A DNA stretch of 63,707 nt, counting the filler. It is 6 parts of 6 records of this genome, joined end to end, with 100 filler letters (N's around TTAATTAATTAA, not from the genome) between each part and the next. Parts side by side here need not be neighbours in the genome. Positions count along the whole stretch, not along the records: positions 1 to 8,741 come from SRR31147125_14104; 5 more parts are not named here. One strand, given 5' to 3'. The notes beneath the pieces are model-generated. The model made no database searches and was not told the origin of the DNA. It was given only the letters and a program-made list of their open reading frames with translations. A program made the position numbers and the translations under genes. This document shows, in pieces, positions 1 through 51,786 of this stretch (positions are counted from its first letter, which is position 1; each line of letters begins with the position of its first letter).

Positions 1-501
1 GGAACTTCGTTGTGGCTTGCTTTTTCTGATGATATGGCTGATTTGGAAAATGAAGACCCTGTTTTAAGGGAGTCTACACGACTAACATGTGCGGGTGCTT
101 TTGCATCGCAGTCGACTTACGATATTTTTCAATGGGATGATATTATTGGATTACCTAATGAAAAAACACCAGAGAAACTACTCGAAATTGCCCGGGCATT
201 TGGTTTTAAAACAGCTGAAGGATTAGAAACCTTTGAAGCTGAAATAATTCGCAGAGACCTCGATTTTCTGGGTAAAATGAATAAAAATGCTTCTCCGTTT
301 TATGTTTTTAACAAACAGGCAGGTGGATTGCCAACCAACCAGGATGAATTAAATCATCATCCGCTGCACGCAAAAACATTAAAAGACAAAGCAGACAAAA
401 TAGGAGCCGAAGCAATTGTTTATGCACCTGAAATAGGTATTGTAGATTCTTCAGGAAAAGATTTGGTAGAGTTTTTTCTGGAGAAATTTTATTTAGGATA
501 G
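1..501 (+). CDS. Alpha/beta-hydrolase (esterase-like), C-terminal part; 5' end cut by the window edge
   Basis: Frame is open from base 1 (GTSLWLAFSDDMAD...DPVLRESTRL..A...QSTYD) and ends with a HHP motif; this resembles the region after the nucleophile in alpha/beta-hydrolases. Confidence 0.55.
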   Translation, partial: GTSLWLAFSDDMADLENEDPVLRESTRLTCAGAFASQSTYDIFQWDDIIGLPNEKTPEKLLEIARAFGFKTAEGLETFEAEIIRRDLDFLGKMNKNASPFYVFNKQAGGLPTNQDELNHHPLHAKTLKDKADKIGAEAIVYAPEIGIVDSSGKDLVEFFLEKFYLG

Positions 502-683
502 CAGGTAGTTGTTTTCGTGAAAATTGAATTTGTGTTTTTCTTTAGGCTTCTTTATTAAGTTTTATTTCTAGTTATATAGAATCAATTTAAATGGTGTTTG
601 TGAATTGACCATATGATTCTAAATCAATAAATTTAAAGGATTAAATATGTGATTATTTAAATCACAACTAACCTTTTATAACC

Positions 684-1394
684 ATGTCCTTAAGTGTGTA
701 TGCAGAAACTACTGCAGGCAATGTACGTAGCGACAACGAAGATTATGTTATAGCAGATAATAATAATAAAATATTTATTATTGCAGATGGTGTTGGAGGC
801 AATCAGGCTGGAGAAATTGCAAGTAAATTTGTTGCAACAGCAATTTATCAATTTTTATCCGATGATTTAACCAAAAATACCAAAGAAAATCTGAATTCCA
901 TTCTTGTTCAAATTAACAAAGATCTAATTTCCAAGTCCGAAAATGATCCCTTACTAATGGGGATGAGCACTACATTAGTATTTTCATTAATTATAGAAGA
1001 AAGTTTTTTAATTGGGAATATTGGCGATTCACGTGGTTATCTATTTCGAAATGGCAAACTCACCCAAATCACAAAAGACCATAGCGTTGTTCAGGAATTG
1101 TTAGACTCAGGAGTAATAAATGAAGAGGAGGCTTTTAATCATCATTTGAAGCATATGATCACCATGGCATTAGGAAACAATACTGTTGAACCTGATTTTT
1201 ATGAGAGTGAATTTCGAAAAGGTGATATTTTAATTCTTTGTTCCGATGGTTTGTCAGATATGGTAACCGACCTTGAGATTGAATCGATTTTAAATATAAA
1301 TGAAACACCTAAAGCAAAACTTAAAATGCTTTCAAATAAAGCTTTGGAAAATGGAGGTTTTGATAACATTTCAATTATCCTAATAAATAAATAG
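684..1394 (+). CDS. PP2C-family (Stp1/PrpC-like) Ser/Thr protein phosphatase
   Basis: Motifs R..NED, IADGVGG, MSTT, NIGDSRGY, TKDHS, LCSDGL and GGFDNIS. Confidence 0.95.
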   Translation: MSLSVYAETTAGNVRSDNEDYVIADNNNKIFIIADGVGGNQAGEIASKFVATAIYQFLSDDLTKNTKENLNSILVQINKDLISKSENDPLLMGMSTTLVFSLIIEESFLIGNIGDSRGYLFRNGKLTQITKDHSVVQELLDSGVINEEEAFNHHLKHMITMALGNNTVEPDFYESEFRKGDILILCSDGLSDMVTDLEIESILNINETPKAKLKMLSNKALENGGFDNISIILINK

Positions 1395-1398
1395 TATT

Positions 1399-2622
1399 AT
1401 GAGTTTAGAGGGACAACAAGCATTTCAGATCCAGAAGGAACTTGGAGGCGGTGGATTTGCTACAGCTTTTAAAGCACTTGTTATTGATCCACGAATTTTT
1501 AAAAACTGGGGATGTAAGGATACGGTTGTTTTAAAAGTTCCAAACGATGAAGACAGCGCTATTTCATTAAGTAAGGAAATAGAAATTAACAATGCTCTTA
1601 AAGTTCTGTGTAATAAGGAAGAATTAGAATATTTATGTGAAGTTTATGGTTCATATTCACTCAATACCAATTTTGGTTCTAAGTTGGTTATGGTTATGGA
1701 GTTTATGCCTGAAGGTAACTTAAGAAATAAAATTCAGAATAAACTTTGCGACTTAAATAATACATTACAAATTTTAAAGGAGATTTTACAAGGATTAAGT
1801 ATTGTCCATAAACATAAAATATTACACAGAGATATAAAACCCGAAAATATTCTTTTCAAAAAAAACAGGGCAAGAATAACTGATTTAGGAGTTGGTAAAG
1901 CCATGCATGATCAGGAATCTACCAAAACTATCGCAGGGACTTTATTTTACATGTCCCCGGAAATGTTATTAAATAAAAAAGGATACACTTACAATGTTGA
2001 TATTTGGTCGGTAGGTGTAATGTTACACGAAATGCAATTTGGATGTTTGCCATTTGATATAAAATATTCTGATCCTCAGGGTGTAGTTGTCTCTAAAATT
2101 GTATCTGCTGAAATTTATAAAAAACCGGATAATTCTGATATTCCAACAGGTCTTAATGCTATTCTGAAAAAAGCGCTTGACAAAGATTCTCAGAAAAGAT
2201 ATCAGACAGCAAACGAAATTATTGATGATATTATAAAATTTGAGCATTCGATAATTAAGGAACGTGAAGATTATAAGGAGTTTATAATAAAACGGAATAG
2301 TGGGAAGCATGATGAAGCAATTGTACTCATTAATAATTTGATTTCTCAATTTAAAGAGTGTAGCGATTTGTATTATGAATTAGGATGTATTTACAATCGG
2401 CTGGCAAGTTACGATAAAGCAGTTAATTCTTTCAAAGCAGGAATAGAATATATTCCTGAATGTGGAATTTTGCATTTGGAAACCGGAAAGGCATTAAGTA
2501 AAACTAATGCCGAATTAGAAGCAATAACCTATTTGAATAATGCTATTGAACTTGGACTCTCCAAAAGAAATGAAATAATAGCTAAAACAATTATCAGTAA
2601 CATTAAAAAACAACAAAAATGA
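1399..2622 (+). CDS. Hanks-type Ser/Thr protein kinase with C-terminal TPR-like repeats
   Basis: LGGGGFATAFKA, VVLK, HRDIKPEN, DLG, GT..YMSPE and DIWSVG; C-terminal helical repeats (LYYELGCIY..., LHLETGKAL...). No TM segment. Confidence 0.93.
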   Translation: MSLEGQQAFQIQKELGGGGFATAFKALVIDPRIFKNWGCKDTVVLKVPNDEDSAISLSKEIEINNALKVLCNKEELEYLCEVYGSYSLNTNFGSKLVMVMEFMPEGNLRNKIQNKLCDLNNTLQILKEILQGLSIVHKHKILHRDIKPENILFKKNRARITDLGVGKAMHDQESTKTIAGTLFYMSPEMLLNKKGYTYNVDIWSVGVMLHEMQFGCLPFDIKYSDPQGVVVSKIVSAEIYKKPDNSDIPTGLNAILKKALDKDSQKRYQTANEIIDDIIKFEHSIIKEREDYKEFIIKRNSGKHDEAIVLINNLISQFKECSDLYYELGCIYNRLASYDKAVNSFKAGIEYIPECGILHLETGKALSKTNAELEAITYLNNAIELGLSKRNEIIAKTIISNIKKQQK

Positions 2623-3077
2623 GCTCGCCTTTGGAGGATATTGAACTGGATGTTAGGAATTATATGAATGAGAATGTTGATCTCAAAAGTGAATTGGAAG
2701 ATTGTAAGCACGAAAAAGTGAAACAACACAGAAAATTACTTCTTGGGATATTGGAAGTTGTTGATTCTATGGAAAATAGATTTGAGGGATTTACAAAAGA
2801 AGAACAAAACCTGAGCGACGAAACTAAAACGTGGGTAAAGAAATTCAGGATTAGTTATAAAAAGATAATCCGATTATTAAAAGAAGAAAATGTAGTTGCA
2901 ATTGAAACAAATATTGGTCAGAAGGTAAATCCAGATTGGCATCAAATAATCGACACATTACAAATAGAGGAAGGTGAAGAAAATGCAATAAGCGAAGTAC
3001 ACCAAAAAGGATATTTACTAAAAGGAAAATTACTTAGAGAATCAACAGTCACAATAATAAAAAATAGTATAACATGA
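2619..3077 (+). CDS. grpE: GrpE-like nucleotide exchange factor (short, divergent)
   Basis: Coiled coil followed by LLxxLEVVDSME and GQKVNPDWHQII...EVHQKGYLLKGKLLRESTV, the GrpE beta-domain pattern. ATGA overlaps with both neighbours. Confidence 0.85.
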   Translation: MSSPLEDIELDVRNYMNENVDLKSELEDCKHEKVKQHRKLLLGILEVVDSMENRFEGFTKEEQNLSDETKTWVKKFRISYKKIIRLLKEENVVAIETNIGQKVNPDWHQIIDTLQIEEGEENAISEVHQKGYLLKGKLLRESTVTIIKNSIT

Positions 3078-5444
3078 AAATAGGAATTGACTTAGGAACA
3101 ACAAATTCAGTAGTAGCCATTGTTGAAACAAAAGGAACACGAATTTTAGACAATAAAGAGGGAGAACAAATGACCCCTTCGGTTGTAGCAGGGAAAAAGG
3201 GGGAAATTATAGTTGGTTCTGTTGGAAGGAAAAGGTTAGTAATGGATCCGTTAAACACTATTTATTCGGTTAAACGATTAATGGGGAGAGGCTTCAAAGA
3301 TGACGAAGTTAAAAAAATGATTAGTGATGTACCCTATAAAATTATCAGACCTCAAAACGGAACTGAAGAAAGTTTATCCATAATGTTAAATGGCAGAGAA
3401 TATACACCAATTGAAATTTCATCGGCGATTTTAAAAAAAATAAAAGATGATGTTGAATTTCGGGTAGGAGAGGAAGTTAAAGATGCTGTAATTACGGTTC
3501 CTGCATATTTTTCTGAGATACAGAAAAGAGCAACAATGGAAGCAGGTAAAATGGCAGGACTTAATGTAATGCGAATAATCGATGAGCCAACGGCGGCGGC
3601 TATTTCTTATGGTATTGTTGAAGAAGCAGAAACCGATGAACCCAAAATGGCTTTGGTTTTCGATTTGGGCGGAGGTACTTTCGATATTTCTGTGATAGCA
3701 TTGTCCGGGGGATCTACTGTACAATTAAACCTGGAAGGAGATATGTGGTTGGGCGGAGATAATTTTGATCAGGTAATAATTGACCATTTAATAGAAAAGA
3801 TTAAGGAAGAGGAGAATGTTGATGTTCGGAATGATTCCAAAATGATGGCTGTTATAAAAAGAGAAGCCCAAAATGCGAAGGAAACATTGTCACATTCGAG
3901 AAGTGCCGATATTATTATTGAAGGAAGAGACCTGGATTTTGAGATAGAAATTACCCGGGAGCAGTTTGAAAACTGGATAGAGCCCTTAATCGTCAAATGT
4001 CAGAACCTGGTTGATAAGGCAATTCTGGGAGCCGGATTCGAAGGTGCACAAGACATTGATATTGTAATAATGGCCGGAAATTCAACATTAATCCCGGCAG
4101 TTCAGCAAAGCATGGAGGCAAAATTTGGATTGGAGAAAGTAAAGAGGAAATTGCATCCAAAATTATGTGTTGCCGATGGTGCAGCAAAAGCAGCAGCAAT
4201 ATGGCCGGAAGATAGTCGGCAATGCATAAGATGTAATACAACAAACGCTGTAAATGAAAAAAAATGTACCAAATGCGGATTTAATTTTGTTGAAGAAGAA
4301 TCAGGTCAGCTGGCATTTTCATACGGGATAGAACAAATAGGTGATAGGTTTAATATTTTTTATGAAAAAGGAACGCCATATCCCATTAAACCCGAAGATC
4401 AAGTTACCAAAACTGTAAATACCAATTTTAATAATCAACGTATGATATTGGTTGCAATTTATGGTGGAGAGCATGAAAAAGTTTCACAAAATGAAAAGCA
4501 AGGTGAAGTGTTTGCTGTTTTACCACATGGGCTCCCTAATGGAGCCGGAGTAAAAAATAAAACTCTGGATAAATAAGGATGGATTATTTGAACTGCAAAC
4601 CATGCTTGAAACAGGGGAAACTTTGCAATGCATTATATTAAGAGGACATTCAGATTCAAAAGCTGTTAATGAGGCATATAAAAAGTTAGATGATTATTCC
4701 ACAAAAAAAGCACAAATACCTCATGATGAGCAATTAAAAATTGAGAAAAAGTTAGACGAAGTATTAAACCGACTAATAAATGGAGAATTTGATGATGCTA
4801 TTTCAGAATGTAAAGAAATAAAAATTGAAGAAATTAAGAGTAGTAGTGAGAATGGAACTCCTCCTGCATTTGATTATCAGCAGGCATTAACTATAGTCAA
4901 TAATATAATGGCACAATACGGCGATTATTTATCACCTACTCAAAGGTATAAATTGCAGGATAAAAAGGAAGAATTAACAAATGCAATTAACAGCGGGAAT
5001 ACTGCATTAGGTAAAAAAATTGCTAATGAGGTTTTAAAAATGATTGATGATTTTATGTTTGAGGATATAAATGGACAAAAAATGCCATCTGTTTTTGGCA
5101 TCGTTATAATTTCTCAGAGTTCATTAATGCAGGCTGAACAAAAAGATCCCGCTGAAGTAGGAAGGCAAAGATTAAAAGAAAAAAGAGAAGAAGCGTTGAT
5201 TGAGATTAGGATGGGAAATAAAACAAAAGGCATTATGGATCTGAGTATGGTCATGATGAAAGCTCAAGAAATTATTGGGAAAGGAACATCCGTTCCAGGA
5301 ATGATTAAATGTCCGCATTGTGGAAAAATGACTCCAAGAAATAAACCGACATGTAATTATTGTACGAAACCAATAATTATTGGAGGAGATCAAATAGGTG
5401 CCGAAAGTAGTAGTTACCTGAATAGTTTTACTGTTGGTAGTTAA
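3074..5444 (+). CDS. Non-canonical Hsp70/DnaK-family protein with two zinc ribbons (about 789 aa once the frameshift at A6 4552-4557 is corrected)
   Basis: GIDLGTTNS, TPSVV, VITVPAYF, DEPTAAA, DLGGGTFD, LGGDNFD. Removing one A joins ORFs 3074-4576 and 4602-5444 through VKIKLWINKDGLFELQT, matching the DnaK IEVTFDIDANGIL strand. Confidence 0.88.
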
Positions 5445-5644
5445 TGACTTATGGTGTGTAGCTAATATGAATTGCTAATACAACAAACAATTTAGTAATA
5501 ATCTTCTCCAAAATAATTTAATACTTCAAATATTTGAGATAACGATTATATGTTGGATTGTATTTTTGCCTGGTTGCGACATGAATTTAAAATGAATATA
5601 AGAATGGTTTATTTATTAATCTCTGCTTAAATTTTTTGGAAAGC

Positions 5645-8219
5645 ATGAAAGATCCATTACAAAAAGAATTGACTGAATATGAGATTCTTAATATTCAGGA
5701 AGATGCAAAGAAAGAAGAAATTCAACCGGCTTTTATTAAGGCATTAAAAGGAAAAATAGAACAAAGCGGCAGGAGCGAGAAAAATACTCCTGAATGAAAT
5801 AGAAAGGATAAAAGTTGATTTTTTTCAATACGATAATATATTTTTTGAGAAGCTTGAAAAAGGCTTGGAAATTGAAAAAAAGTTAATCTCGCAAAGAATA
5901 AGTGTCGCAAATGATTGGCAGCTTGAACAATCAAATTTATTTCCTGAGATTAGTTCTATTGCGCATTCACTTAATGTGTTATGGTTTTGGACGGCGTTAA
6001 ATGTATCTGAGAATTGCTTTCAAAAGTTATCAGTAGATCCAGAATCAATTGCAACAGATGATTTAAACAAGTTAGAGAATGCCTGGAATAAAGCTATTGC
6101 CTATTTCACAGCATCTATAAACTCCGATTTATTTTTAAATAATTGGCTAAAAAGCAGGAATTATTTCCAAAATGGATCAACGAATAATATAAAATCAGAA
6201 ATTAAAGAAAAACTAATTCAAAAAGTTGAAAACAAGCTACAATATTATTACGGTAATTCTGTCTCAACAAGCGTTCCCCTTAAGGTTCTTTTTCAAAAAC
6301 TTTTAGACAATTTAAAACTGGAATTAAGTATTTCTAATAAAATTAGAAGTTTAAAGATAAATGTAGATACAAAAATAAATGGTTCGCAAAGAGTTGAAGG
6401 ACTAGGTAAAATATTTCTGGAAGAATACGGTTATATTGAAAAAGTAAGAAATATTATTTCTGATTTAAATTCCGCGAGTAATAATGAAAAAATAAATGAT
6501 TTGTTGATTGCATTATCCCCTTTTGCAAATATTCAATCGTTGGTAAATAAAAAACAGTTTAAAAGTGCACTGGATGAAATTGAAAAACTACCCCAAGCTG
6601 ATAAGACAACACCTGAACTGAAAAAACTTAAACAAGACTCTATTGTAGGATTAGCACGTTTTTGTATTTCAGGAGGTGTTTTAACCGAATTTCTTGAATT
6701 TAAAAATAATTATTTGAAAGCCAGAACTGTTGCTACCAGCAAGGTTGTTCAGATAATTGCAGATGATATTTTTAAGCTGGTTGCTAGTTTAAAAAATGTC
6801 AATCAGGATAAAATGATTGAATTACTTGCATGGGTTAATTCCAATGCTCCGGAGCATAAAAATATACGGCTAAAATTAGCGAATCTTTACCTTGAACGGG
6901 GAATTCAAACCTATAATAAAGGACAAAGAGCTTACGAGAAAGAACCCACAGAAAAGAATAGATTGTTGATGGAGAAAGGATTTGAAGATGCAGAAAAGGC
7001 CAAAAAATTAAATCCTACAGAAAAACGCATCCTTCAAAATCATGATGTCATGAAAAGGGGCGTTAATATTTCTAATCCGGTAATAAGTGAAGCTTCAAAA
7101 AATAATGGGGAAGGTGTTAAATTGCTTAGTCAGGCAAATAACGATTTAAAAGCAGGCAATGTAAACGAGGCTAAAGAAAAAATACAGAAAGCGAAAAGTT
7201 TGTTTGAAGCTGCATTGAAAGTTGAGCCCAACAATAACGTTTTTAAGGATAATAGAAAAATAGCAGTGGATTATCTTCAGCAGATAACTAAAGTTGAAAC
7301 AGATTTAAAAAATCAGCAAAAAGCAAGAAAAGATAACGATGATGGTGTGCTGATTTTAAATGGCTGCCAGAATGATTATGTGAAATATATGCAGGCCAAA
7401 AATACATTAAAACAAATTAAACAAATAAAATTGCCCGATGGCGCGCAATTAAATGCAAAAGGACAAGAACTTTTATCAGAATCGTTGGACACTGTAAATT
7501 CATTGGTTGATAGTTTGAAAAGAAGAATTGAAGAGGCGTTTGATTTTTTTGAATCAGCCCTTGATATGTTTCCCAATAATGAAACGTACAAAAAAAATCG
7601 GGATTATGCTTATGATATGTATGCTGAGGTCCAAACATTTGAAGAAATTATTTACGATAAGCCAGCTAAAAAATTACAAAAAGGATATCCTCAAAATAAA
7701 CCTGCCGGGGGATACTCGTTGAACAAACCAAGAAGTAGTTATACATCTACAACGCCTAAAAGGGATTATTCCCGTAAAAAACCGGCAACCAATTACACCA
7801 AAAAAAGTACACCCAAATATAATCCAGGCAGAAAGAAAACTTACAATTACTCTTCAGCTAAAACAAACTCAACAAAACTTCTTAAAGGTGTAAAAGATGT
7901 TTTTTATTTTATTGTAGGCGCTATTATGTTTTTGCTAGTCATGGTCTTGGCTATGGCTTCTGTTGAGGTGTATAAATTTCTCGATTTATATTTAGATAAA
8001 GGACAGTTTTTAGTATCTGCAGGCAAAATTGCTTTTGCAACCCTTCAAACAATATCATTTTATTTAATTATCATAAAAGGTAGACAGGCGTGGTTATTTA
8101 TATGGTATTTAATCGGCATTGCGGGTATCTGGGAATCAGGATTGGGTATGTTTTGGTTTGTATTGTATTGTATTGGATTTGTAGTCTCTGTTATTCTCTA
8201 TTTTACAACACGGGAGTGA
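5645..8219 (+). CDS. Large membrane-anchored TPR-like protein with a degenerate N-terminal J-like domain (frameshift near 5757-5765)
   Basis: ATG 5645 gives MKDPLQKELTEYEILNIQEDAKKEEIQPAFIKALK. The next frame continues KAAGARKILLNEIERIKVDFFQY into ORF 5865-8219, which has TPR-like repeats, a K/S/T/Y/P-rich linker and about 4 C-terminal TM helices. Confidence 0.7.
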
Positions 8220-8232
8220 TTAAAAATTTATT

Positions 8233-8741
8233 ATGGAATTAAAAATTGATTGTATTTGTAAATATGGTAAAGGTTTACCTTTGGATACCAAAAGATGCCC
8301 CAAATGTGGATTAAACCTGGAAACAATAGCAAAACTTTATAAGTTATCCGGAGATTTAATAGTACAAGGCGATGAATCTTTTAAAGAGAATAAAACTGGC
8401 TTAGCTGTTTCTTTTTACCATGCAGCGCATCATCTTTCAATTATTCCTGAGCCAGAGCCGTTTGTAAAGGCAATTGAAATCTATATAAATGAAAAAAATG
8501 GTAAGCTGGCAGGTGAATTACTGAAGTACTCAAAAATACATTTTCCTGATGAAAAGGTCTGGAATGATCTTGAAAATAGAGTTAATGAATTATTGAATGA
8601 GGAAAATGAAAAAAAGAAACAACAACAAAAAGTAGTTAAAAATTTCCGATTTTTTAAAAATGCTTTTTACGCTTCAATTGGAATATTATTTGTATTAGTA
8701 GTATTCAATTTTACTAAACAATTTTTAATTCCTAACGATGA
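8233..8741 (+). CDS. Zinc-ribbon + TPR-like + transmembrane protein; 3' end cut by the contig end
   Basis: N-terminal CIC...CPKCG, a TPR-like helix pair, a coiled coil, then hydrophobic AFYASIGILFVLVVF. Confidence 0.7.
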
Positions 8742-8841
8742 NNNNNNNNNNNNNNNNNNNNNNNNNNNNNNNNNNNNNNNNNNNNTTAATTAATTAANNN
8801 NNNNNNNNNNNNNNNNNNNNNNNNNNNNNNNNNNNNNNNNN
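8742..8841. other. Artificial contig linker (N44-TTAATTAATTAA-N44)
   Basis: N runs flank a 12-mer that has stops in all six frames; the same linker occurs five times. Confidence 0.97.
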
Positions 8842-24944: not shown

Positions 24945-25044
24945 NNNNNNNNNNNNNNNNNNNNNNNNNNNNNNNNNNNNNNNNNNNNTTAATTAATTAA
25001 NNNNNNNNNNNNNNNNNNNNNNNNNNNNNNNNNNNNNNNNNNNN
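24945..25044. other. Artificial contig linker
   Basis: N44-TTAATTAATTAA-N44. Confidence 0.97.
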
Positions 25045-34599: not shown

Positions 34600-34699
34600 N
34601 NNNNNNNNNNNNNNNNNNNNNNNNNNNNNNNNNNNNNNNNNNNTTAATTAATTAANNNNNNNNNNNNNNNNNNNNNNNNNNNNNNNNNNNNNNNNNNNN
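34600..34699. other. Artificial contig linker
   Basis: N44-TTAATTAATTAA-N44. Confidence 0.97.
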
Positions 34700-39829: not shown

Positions 39830-39929
39830 NNNNNNNNNNNNNNNNNNNNNNNNNNNNNNNNNNNNNNNNNNNNTTAATTAATTAANNNNNNNNNNNNNNN
39901 NNNNNNNNNNNNNNNNNNNNNNNNNNNNN
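39830..39929. other. Artificial contig linker
   Basis: N44-TTAATTAATTAA-N44. Confidence 0.97.
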
Positions 39930-51686: not shown

Positions 51687-51786
51687 NNNNNNNNNNNNNN
51701 NNNNNNNNNNNNNNNNNNNNNNNNNNNNNNTTAATTAATTAANNNNNNNNNNNNNNNNNNNNNNNNNNNNNNNNNNNNNNNNNNNN
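51687..51786. other. Artificial contig linker
   Basis: N44-TTAATTAATTAA-N44. Confidence 0.97.

Follow-up and report, generated by a model that had tools for sequence, protein, structure and literature searches.

A rare bacterial Hsp70 subfamily marked by predicted zinc ribbons at the hinge between its nucleotide-binding and substrate-binding domains

The stretch of DNA analysed here, hereafter the window, measures 63,707 nucleotides, filler included, and is a chain of separate contigs with a spacer between each and the next, N44-TTAATTAATTAA-N44, that puts a stop in all six frames. Five such spacers are present (8742-8841, 24945-25044, 34600-34699, 39830-39929 and 51687-51786). The first contig carries the gene of an Hsp70 paralog with a predicted zinc ribbon between its two main domains (3074..5444), which is the subject of this work. 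Upstream of it lie the genes of a PP2C Ser/Thr phosphatase of the Stp1/IreP type (684..1394), of a Ser/Thr protein kinase with C-terminal TPR (1399..2622) and of a short GrpE-like nucleotide exchange factor of 152 residues (2619..3077), which overlaps its neighbour genes at both ends. Downstream come the gene of a membrane protein with a J-like domain (5645..8219) and that of a small protein with an N-terminal CxxC ribbon and a transmembrane (TM) segment (8233..8741), cut by the contig end. All of these features are on the plus strand. Because the first spacer is at 8742-8841, physical linkage to the Hsp70 gene is limited to positions 1..8741, and since the window is made of joined contigs, genes flanking a spacer are not known as neighbours. 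An Rfam scan of the whole window gave no match.

As recorded in the window, the Hsp70 gene is divided into two open reading frames (ORFs), one of 500 residues (3074..4576) and a second at 4602..5444, the two frames converging on six consecutive A at 4552-4557. Shortened to five A, this run gives the translated text GAGVK-IKLWINKDGLFELQ, which matches the relatives. Three close relatives of 785-787 residues, recovered by a word search (3 matches among 177 candidates), align end to end with the two ORFs taken together. An independent contig of 15,114 nucleotides from the public run X1 (depth 64.6) covers 3074-6100 and differs from the window at four places. It lacks one A at 4552, which restores an Hsp70 of 789 residues, it has an A added after 5751 and another after 5759, which restores the frame of the downstream gene, and it carries G>C at 4046. 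Run X1 may be the window's own source sample, in which case the contig is a second assembly and not a second organism. We conclude that the ORF end at 4576 is an artefact, and that the true product has about 789 residues and is encoded by 3074..5444. The three indels, all near A-runs, are read as homopolymer errors of the window record and the Hsp70 gene as intact; other split ORFs in the window may have the same origin. A first-pass annotation of this DNA had overlooked the assembly error.

The nucleotide-binding domain (NBD) occupies residues 1-377 (3074..4204). Pfam HSP70 (PF00012) matched residues 3-377 only of the window ORF, that is, the NBD (E 4.4e-119), and the catalytic residues D8, K70, E171, D194, T199 and D201 (DnaK numbering) are all present. 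Over the 500-residue ORF, identity to E. coli DnaK is 38%; the same ORF stays below the cut-offs of the canonical DnaK equivalogs (NCBIfam NF001413 and TIGR02350, 373.9 vs 648 and 357.7 vs 822.55 bits) and likewise of the HscA models (317 vs 708.55 bits). After the last NBD helix the junction reads ...GAAKAAAIWPEDSRQCIRCNTTNAVNEKKCTKCGFNFVEEESGQLAFSYGIE..., and contains the putative zinc ribbon C384-x2-C387-x3-N391-x6-C398-x2-C401 (4223..4276). It is followed by a degenerate linker position, GFNFVEEESGQLA (4277..4315), with neither the hydrophobic VLLL nor an equivalent of D393, and then by a domain resembling the substrate-binding domain's beta part (SBD-beta; FSYGIE ... ILRGHSD, 4316..4655), which spans the frameshift. 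Its presence was supported by PDB sequence matches of full-length Hsp70s, which run to query residue 510-563, by the Pfam HSP70 match of the relative P0001, which spans 3-564, by beta strands at 415-520 in the P0001 model, and by K414, T428, Q433, G443, N451, G455 and P466, which are invariant in alignment A5. The place of the DnaK lid (DnaK 509-607) is taken by a helical region (4656..5309) that aligns with DnaK no further than its first helix and whose mean pairwise identity among relatives is 0.17. The protein closes with a predicted C-terminal zinc ribbon, CPHCGKMTPRNKPTCNYC (5310..5363), also found in many relatives. A look-up of P0001 370-787 in the ESM Atlas returned best scores of 0.82-0.83, under the meaningful level.

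When residues 370-500 were run as a HMMER query against 1.84 billion cluster representatives, 124 proteins matched at E<=1e-3, 49 at <=1e-10 and one at <=1e-30. Adding two further relatives from the word search gave 126 proteins, and both the NBD end and the SBD start could be located in 89 of them, with a junction segment of 13-131 residues in between. In 53 of these 89 relatives the junction contains strict CxxC-x5-24-CxxC units: 31 relatives have a single one, 16 have a pair, 4 have three and 2 have four. Among the other 36, 31 have at least four Cys (mostly 4 or 8), many with the variant spacing C-Q-A-P-D...E-C-G...C-x2-C-G, and two have three; only P0034, P0048 and P0105 have a junction devoid of Cys. 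Column counts were made on alignment A4, which holds 53 sequences. The four ligand columns are Cys in 51, 50, 51 and 51 of them, the first Cys is followed by Pro in 41, Asn stands four residues past the second Cys in 48, Gly follows the last Cys in 41, and L or F comes three residues on in 49. The remaining ribbon positions vary freely, with a mean pairwise identity of 0.24, vs 0.45 in the NBD and 0.36 in SBD-beta. The resulting layout, C-x2-C-x3-N-x6-C-x2-C-G, is that of the zinc ribbons DZR (PF12773) and Zn_Ribbon_1 (PF13240), and Pfam matched DZR in 38 of the A4 members (E<=0.01), Zn_Ribbon_1 in 34, Zn_ribbon_3 in 21 and the RanBP2-type finger in 5. For the window ORF, no Pfam ribbon match reached E<=0.01, and the DZR match of P0001 (2.8e-4) lies below cut-off. 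In some clades (L032a, L032b, L034 and L035) His replaces one of the ribbon Cys. We conclude that the hinge ribbon is a conserved hallmark of the family and not a chance motif, and, going by the motif, that the insertion probably binds zinc. The CxxC-x10-CxxC that the first-pass annotation had placed at the NBD-SBD junction is thus there as quoted, and the Cys residues, on whose conservation in homologs it had made its reading depend, are conserved.

Besides the hinge ribbon, a subset of the family has a further Cys-rich, ribbon-like insertion within the NBD. It was seen in L002 (4438-6969) and L029 (6552-9092, with a C-x-C...C-x2-C stretch); in P0010, P0024 and P0025 too, the NBD match breaks at about 306-328.

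Linker positions were assigned in 67 family sequences by taking the invariant Gly equivalent to DnaK G400 as anchor and counting towards the N-terminus. The equivalents of V389-L392 include 0, 1, 2, 3 and 4 hydrophobic residues in 15, 18, 24, 9 and 1 sequences, respectively, so that two or more are kept behind the ribbon(s) in 34 and none or one in 33. The D393 position is D in 7 sequences and G in 25. The window protein has EEES at DnaK 389-392 and G at D393, and the canonical D-V-L-L-L-D linker is not found in it; its clade mates P0001-P0003 read EESV, DDSA and EESV. A distant clade keeps a near-canonical string directly behind the ribbon (EIVGDVT; for example PLEIVGDVTAMDYGIQ in L030), and many members have two hydrophobic residues, then GGIAPF-YG. 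Since hydrophobic residues persist behind the ribbon in about half of the sequences, the ribbons are located in the exposed, hydrophilic first part of the linker. The ribbon is an insertion N-terminal to the linker position and not a swap for the linker, and the hydrophobic linker behind it has decayed to a varying degree and is gone in the window protein. The strand with F216 pairs with the linker (PMC6843406, Table 2, in the part available); a decayed linker is found in 12 of 14 relatives that have no F or Y at the F216 position, a count that ignores kinship. The claim that the VLLL linker is missing from this protein holds, then, and the claim that the ribbon had taken its place does not.

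The allosteric hot spots of Hsp70 include R151, R167, D326, V389, D393, K414 and D481, according to the part of PMC6843406 that was available. Counted over the 67 sequences, the catalytic site is well kept (D8 in 61, K70 in 63, P143 in 67, E171 in 66, D194 in 66, T199 in 65 and D201 in 66). Docking residues are largely kept as well: K414 in 59, R151 as R or K in 65, and D481 as D in 36 and N in 14 (50 of 67). Residues that contact the J-domain are altered: N170 is never N and is D in 47, and R167 stays R in only 14, 30 sequences having K there. At K155, 50 sequences have R. Across the family the adenosine-loop motif differs too, with N at G342 in 35 sequences and a variable R345. In the alignment with E. 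coli DnaK, the window protein has MAGNSTLIP where DnaK reads LVGGQTRMP, and the change of this motif noted in the first-pass annotation is borne out (GNSTLIP vs GGQTRMP).

An AlphaFold2 model of P0001, built with alignment A4, reached a mean predicted local distance difference test (pLDDT) of 88.9 and a predicted TM-score of 0.74. It shows beta strands at 415-520 (SBD-beta), helices at 526-731 and then the C-terminal ribbon. Its closest matches by Foldseek were domain-docked AMPylated or AMP-PNP forms of BiP (6eob, 6eof, 5o4p, 6zmd and 7b7z; TMt 0.86-0.87, root mean square deviation (rmsd) 3.3-6 A), followed by ATP-bound DnaK (4b9q, 7ko2 and 5nro, TMt 0.74). The fit to undocked forms was poorer (TMt 0.56-0.65; 0.56 for 2kho and 0.61 for 1yuw). 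The predicted P0001 structure adopts an ATP-like docked form.

The product of the gene at 5645..8219 is a membrane protein: a J-like domain at its N-terminus is followed by a middle part rich in TPR and by a hydrophobic, membrane-type tail at the C-terminus. Two bases near 5751-5759 are absent from the window, and the gene is split there into an ORF of 50 residues and one of 784 (5865..8219). The J-like proteins start with MKDPL-x-PYEILGI...A...I..AFK...AR..L.DP..RA..D.F.Y, and the window copy has the same start. Pfam DnaJ (PF00226) matched 10 of 10 N-termini and was the top match in 9, with E-values of 8.8e-6 to 0.17, all below the 27.8-bit cut-off. These matches cover the first half of the profile only (at most 1-35) and end where the HPD motif (His-Pro-Asp, between helices II and III) would follow. 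HPD is absent throughout the 17 homologous ORFs, and the aligned loop is variable. An AlphaFold2 model of the J-like domain from L017 (pLDDT 80) has helices at 11-15, 23-35, 41-49 and 51-61; its best PDB matches are almost all J-domains (TMt up to 0.71, rmsd 1.4-2 A), with an rmsd of 1.5 A to E. coli DnaJ in 5nro_B. The neighbouring gene is thus predicted to specify a four-helix J fold that lacks HPD. The HPD-less partner, the changed J-contact residues and the degenerate linker support a rewired J/linker coupling. In this respect the proposal of the first-pass annotation that allostery is rewired stands; in respect of docking it is not supported as worded, as the docking residues are largely kept and the model is docked.

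Loci were collected by scans with an SBD-specific alignment. Species genomes, scanned with the four-row alignment A3, yielded two loci, in one Bacteroidales and one Opitutaceae metagenome-assembled genome, and metagenomes yielded 28, namely 20 of the family, 7 of a ribbon-less Hsp70 group (L036-L042) and one fragment (L043). The last eight (L036-L043) were excluded from all family counts. Merging near-identical copies left 19 distinct loci, window included. GrpE is directly upstream of the Hsp70 gene in 16 of 17 assessable loci, L035 having none; L027 and L028, which start at a contig edge, are outside these 17. A J-like/TPR gene is downstream of the Hsp70 in 12 of 17 loci. In L025 and L027 it comes after a second Hsp70-like gene, and in L030 and L032-L034 there is only a weaker TPR match, upstream. 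The homologous kinase-TPR gene is present in 10 of the 19 distinct loci and PP2C is beside the Hsp70 in 9. Other neighbours are TPR-LysM or BON proteins, ClpB-like AAA+ ATPases, NBD-only Hsp70-TPR fusions and FHA-kinases.

In the window, the phosphatase was identified by Pfam PP2C_2 (4e-14) and NCBIfam Stp1_PP2C_phos (245 bits, cut-off 230), and the kinase by Pfam Pkinase (7e-46) and TPR_8. The GrpE-like protein matched Pfam GrpE at 2.8e-21 over profile positions 49-165, and is under every NCBIfam GrpE equivalog cut-off. The small gene at 8233-8741 occupies the position held in other loci by TPR-LysM or BON genes. Small TPR-LysM proteins recur downstream (L019 9435-10157, L030 10918-11814 and L033 7410-8327); L032 9212-10102 combines TPR-LysM with BON, and L026 7122-7796 has LysM only. 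LysM being a peptidoglycan-binding domain, these recurrent neighbours point to the cell envelope. The cassette suggests a chaperone module that is linked to the envelope and controlled by phosphorylation. The genome with the family member L001 (G001) also encodes a canonical DnaK (756 bits). Profile A2, run over 301 genomes in each of the phyla of G001 and G002, gave a strong match in the seed genome only, and the family is therefore rare and patchy. A further 154 matches of 27-37 bits, in frames of 620-690 residues from the phylum of G001, were read as SBDs of ordinary DnaK and set aside. PADLOC-DB 2.0 returned no defence family for P0001, the J-like/TPR proteins or the NBD-only Hsp70; its only matches were generic ones to kinase domains and PP2C.

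A second Hsp70-like gene directly follows the ribbon Hsp70 in six loci (L016 9171-9890, L025 9102-10976, L027 2552-4405, L030 9292-10878, L032 5164-6726 and L034 4625-6154). Three of them were scanned with Pfam: those of L030 and L032 consist of an NBD and TPR repeats without SBD, and that of L016 ends at the contig edge after 240 residues. L032 carries two ribbon Hsp70 genes.

The arrangement shares with DnaK/DnaJ/GrpE an actin-like NBD with the full catalytic set, SBD-beta, a GrpE gene immediately upstream and an adjacent gene for a J-type partner. It differs by the linker ribbon(s), the degenerate VLLLD, the changed N170, R167, G342 and R345, and a lid apparently replaced by a seemingly unrelated helical region of about 220 residues plus the C-terminal ribbon. 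The J partner, moreover, has no HPD, and the ribbon Hsp70 is additional to a true DnaK. The prokaryotic Hsp70 types named in the accessible part of one review are DnaK, HscA and HscC only (Mayer 2021, PMC8215388). HscC of E. coli with DjlB/DjlC offers a parallel: it too is an additional, specialised Hsp70, its J-type partner is anchored in the membrane, and its clients are probably few and membrane-related (PMC8215388, same part). However, HscC is described there as having no GrpE signature, so that GrpE use is not expected, together with a conserved linker and true J-domain partners (Mayer 2021, PMC8215388), whereas the ribbon Hsp70 family comes with a GrpE of its own, with ribbons and with a J-like partner that lacks HPD.

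Two other groups of systems come close. In the GAP1-N2 GTPase-centric conflict systems, HSP70-GrpE themes with DnaJ/TPR partners and kinase-PP2C themes have been described (Kaur et al. 2020, PMC7159879, as far as its text was accessible). Shared between them and the present loci are HSP70 and GrpE, sometimes an NBD-only second HSP70, DnaJ/TPR partners and kinase-PP2C nearby; here, NBD-only Hsp70-TPR genes are found in L030 and L032, and kinase and PP2C in many loci. No GTPase family was found among 38 neighbours from 7 loci, the 18 proteins of L001 and L002 or 7 window proteins, nor any GAP1 or FNIII protein among the same 38 neighbours or in the window operon. The GAP1-N2 systems, moreover, are mainly from actinobacteria and firmicutes, and no ribbon in HSP70 is mentioned in the accessible sections of that paper (PMC7159879). 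The 'DnaK derivates' known from Myxococcus and further bacteria (FEBS J 2026, PMC13580251, seen in part) are likewise additional Hsp70 paralogs in which linker and lid are altered or absent. The portion consulted suggests that they have lost J- and substrate-activation and kept ATP hydrolysis, and calls them chaperone 'dark matter'. They differ from the ribbon family, which keeps SBD-beta, by N- or C-terminal additions and missing SBD parts; that portion mentions neither a junction ribbon nor a cassette (PMC13580251).

We conclude that these proteins form a rare bacterial Hsp70 subfamily, the hallmark of which is one to four Cys4 predicted zinc ribbons of the DZR / Zn_Ribbon_1 type at the NBD-SBD hinge. 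The following explanation of how they may work is the one that we prefer. Cycling between ATP-docked and ADP-undocked forms would be retained and would require the family's own GrpE, and the classical trigger, made of the J-domain HPD, R167/N170 and the VLLL linker, would be weakened or lost. The J-like domain may mainly tether the chaperone to a membrane TPR scaffold. The ribbons would be zinc-stabilised rigid modules looped out of the hinge, which set its length and stiffness and could provide, beside the IA/IIA cleft, a surface for docking. Switching on and off might be due to Ser/Thr phosphorylation and the dedicated exchange factor, and not to a canonical J-protein. The probable job would be to remodel or hold a few envelope-associated clients; general folding is unlikely, since the same genome has a canonical DnaK. 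A structural or platform role of the ribbons is favoured over one fixed interface by the variable ribbon surface, the copy number of one to four and the placement in the exposed linker. Taken as a whole, a ribbon-hinged Hsp70 with a weakened J trigger, GrpE/phospho control and envelope clients has, in our estimate, about even chances of being the right explanation.

Several observations weigh against it. A single fixed binding partner fits poorly with so variable a ribbon surface. Of the 67 sequences, only 4 have D at D326, the residue that pairs with K414. The ribbon region of the P0001 model has a pLDDT of only 63-78, and zinc binding itself is deduced from the motif alone. AlphaFold tends to give Hsp70s in docked form, and the docked model is for this reason weak evidence for retained allostery. 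Foldseek E-values of the J-like model are all 0.07 or worse. Finally, several loci (L019 and L030-L035, for instance) lack kinase and PP2C, and phospho-control cannot therefore be general.

A bolder reading sees a self-contained, envelope-tethered Hsp70 machine that has abandoned the universal J-HPD/linker trigger altogether for a switch by Ser/Thr phosphorylation, through the kinase and PP2C of the operon, or by a ribbon partner, with the ribbons as allosteric relay. We regard this as possible, although on the improbable side. If true, this would be the first Hsp70 class in which coupling between ATPase and substrate is gated by signalling rather than by a J-protein. In a rival proposal, the ribbons are a docking module for a specific partner that gates NBD-SBD docking, tandem copies adding avidity; the candidates are the kinase TPR, the J-like/TPR protein, the NBD-only Hsp70-TPR paralog, a membrane surface or nucleic acid. 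RanBP2-type fingers bind proteins or RNA, and the RanBP2-type model matched 5 of 53 members, its spacing C-x2-C-x3-N-x6-C-x2-C being the same as in the hinge ribbon. TPR proteins are abundant in every locus and the ribbon copy number of one to four would suit such a module as well, but the ribbon surface is among the least conserved positions (0.24), which leaves no fixed interface, and we find the proposal rather doubtful. A redox or zinc switch, the idea put forward in the first-pass annotation, was also considered, in which oxidation or metal stress frees zinc, the ribbon unfolds, NBD and SBD are uncoupled, and the protein becomes an ATP-independent holdase like Hsp33. Zinc-thiolate redox switching in chaperones is established, and 4 to 16 Cys are located exactly at the allosteric hinge, with a Cys4 ribbon at the C-terminus in addition. 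Such a switch nevertheless seems unlikely: the motif is a generic bacterial DZR / Zn_Ribbon_1 scaffold, present in many proteins without redox function, neither the 38 scanned neighbours nor the window operon included a gene for thioredoxin, peroxiredoxin or metal handling, and the replacement of one Cys by His in L032a, L032b, L034 and L035 suits a structural site.

Hep1/Zim17 suggests still another role, that of a cis-acting escort, with the ribbon shielding an aggregation-prone NBD and linker, and so keeping the protein soluble and monomeric, as Hep1 does in trans for mitochondrial Hsp70. The smallest unit bound by Hep1, a tetracysteine zinc-finger protein, comprises the ATPase domain plus the interdomain linker (PMC4890766, in the sections accessible to us); like the ribbon, Hep1 brings a Cys4 zinc module to the NBD-linker unit of an Hsp70 (PMC4890766, same sections), and the ribbon lies exactly at the junction that Hep1 binds. 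Yet Hep1 is a separate protein with a zf-DNL fold and other Cys spacing, no sequence link was found, and the likeness is one of analogy only. As the window clade has no hydrophobic linker to shield, and up to four copies would be needless for shielding, we judge this role very unlikely. The frameshift in the window Hsp70, the two bases missing from the next gene and the odd junction could, lastly, be the marks of a decayed gene. This is improbable in the extreme, as the relatives are full length without stops and conserve the catalytic residues; the pseudogene reading was rejected because the X1 contig (depth 64.6) is intact at all three indel places.

The interest of the family lies in what it keeps and what it loses. 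In the portions of PMC6843406 and PMC8215388 that were available, Hsp70 allostery is described as depending almost universally on the hydrophobic linker and on the HPD of the J-domain. The ribbon family retains the catalytic site, SBD-beta, the docking residues and a GrpE of its own, while its linker has decayed to different degrees in different clades and its J-like partner has lost HPD. The family is thus a natural graded series, from a ribbon with an intact-looking linker through a vestigial linker to no hydrophobic linker, and as such a ready-made experiment on which coupling parts are truly needed. The conserved cassette also gives concrete form to part of the bacterial "DnaK derivate dark matter" (PMC13580251, as far as accessible). 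Full-text literature searches, which leave subscription journals outside, turned up no account of a zinc ribbon lying between NBD and SBD in an Hsp70; being visible to Pfam, the architecture is not hidden from databases and seems simply undescribed.

Some further observations concern single members or neighbouring genes. One A4 member has a TIR_2 domain (E 6.7e-13), one matches CATASP, and the FHA-kinase of L033 (8669-10771) shows a weak likeness to ubiquitin E2 (UQ_con, 2.1e-5, below cut-off), all of which may hint at a part in conflict or immunity. AAA+ ATPases, ClpB-like or of other kinds, are found near the cassette in L019 (1653-4025), L030 (14075-16294) and L002 (11198-14201), the latter also having an FtsH-like gene. 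An ORF of exactly 144 residues without Pfam match lies upstream of GrpE in four loci (L016 3745-4176, L030 5758-6189, L032 1792-2223 and L033 4078-4509), immediately before it in L030, L032 and L033. The ribbon-less Hsp70s of L036-L042 have about 550-590 residues, the linker FVVVDVAPFTLGIE and the C-terminal end ...LIADYSY, and a GrpE-like gene is upstream of them in 5 of the 7 loci, that is, wherever the contig reaches far enough.

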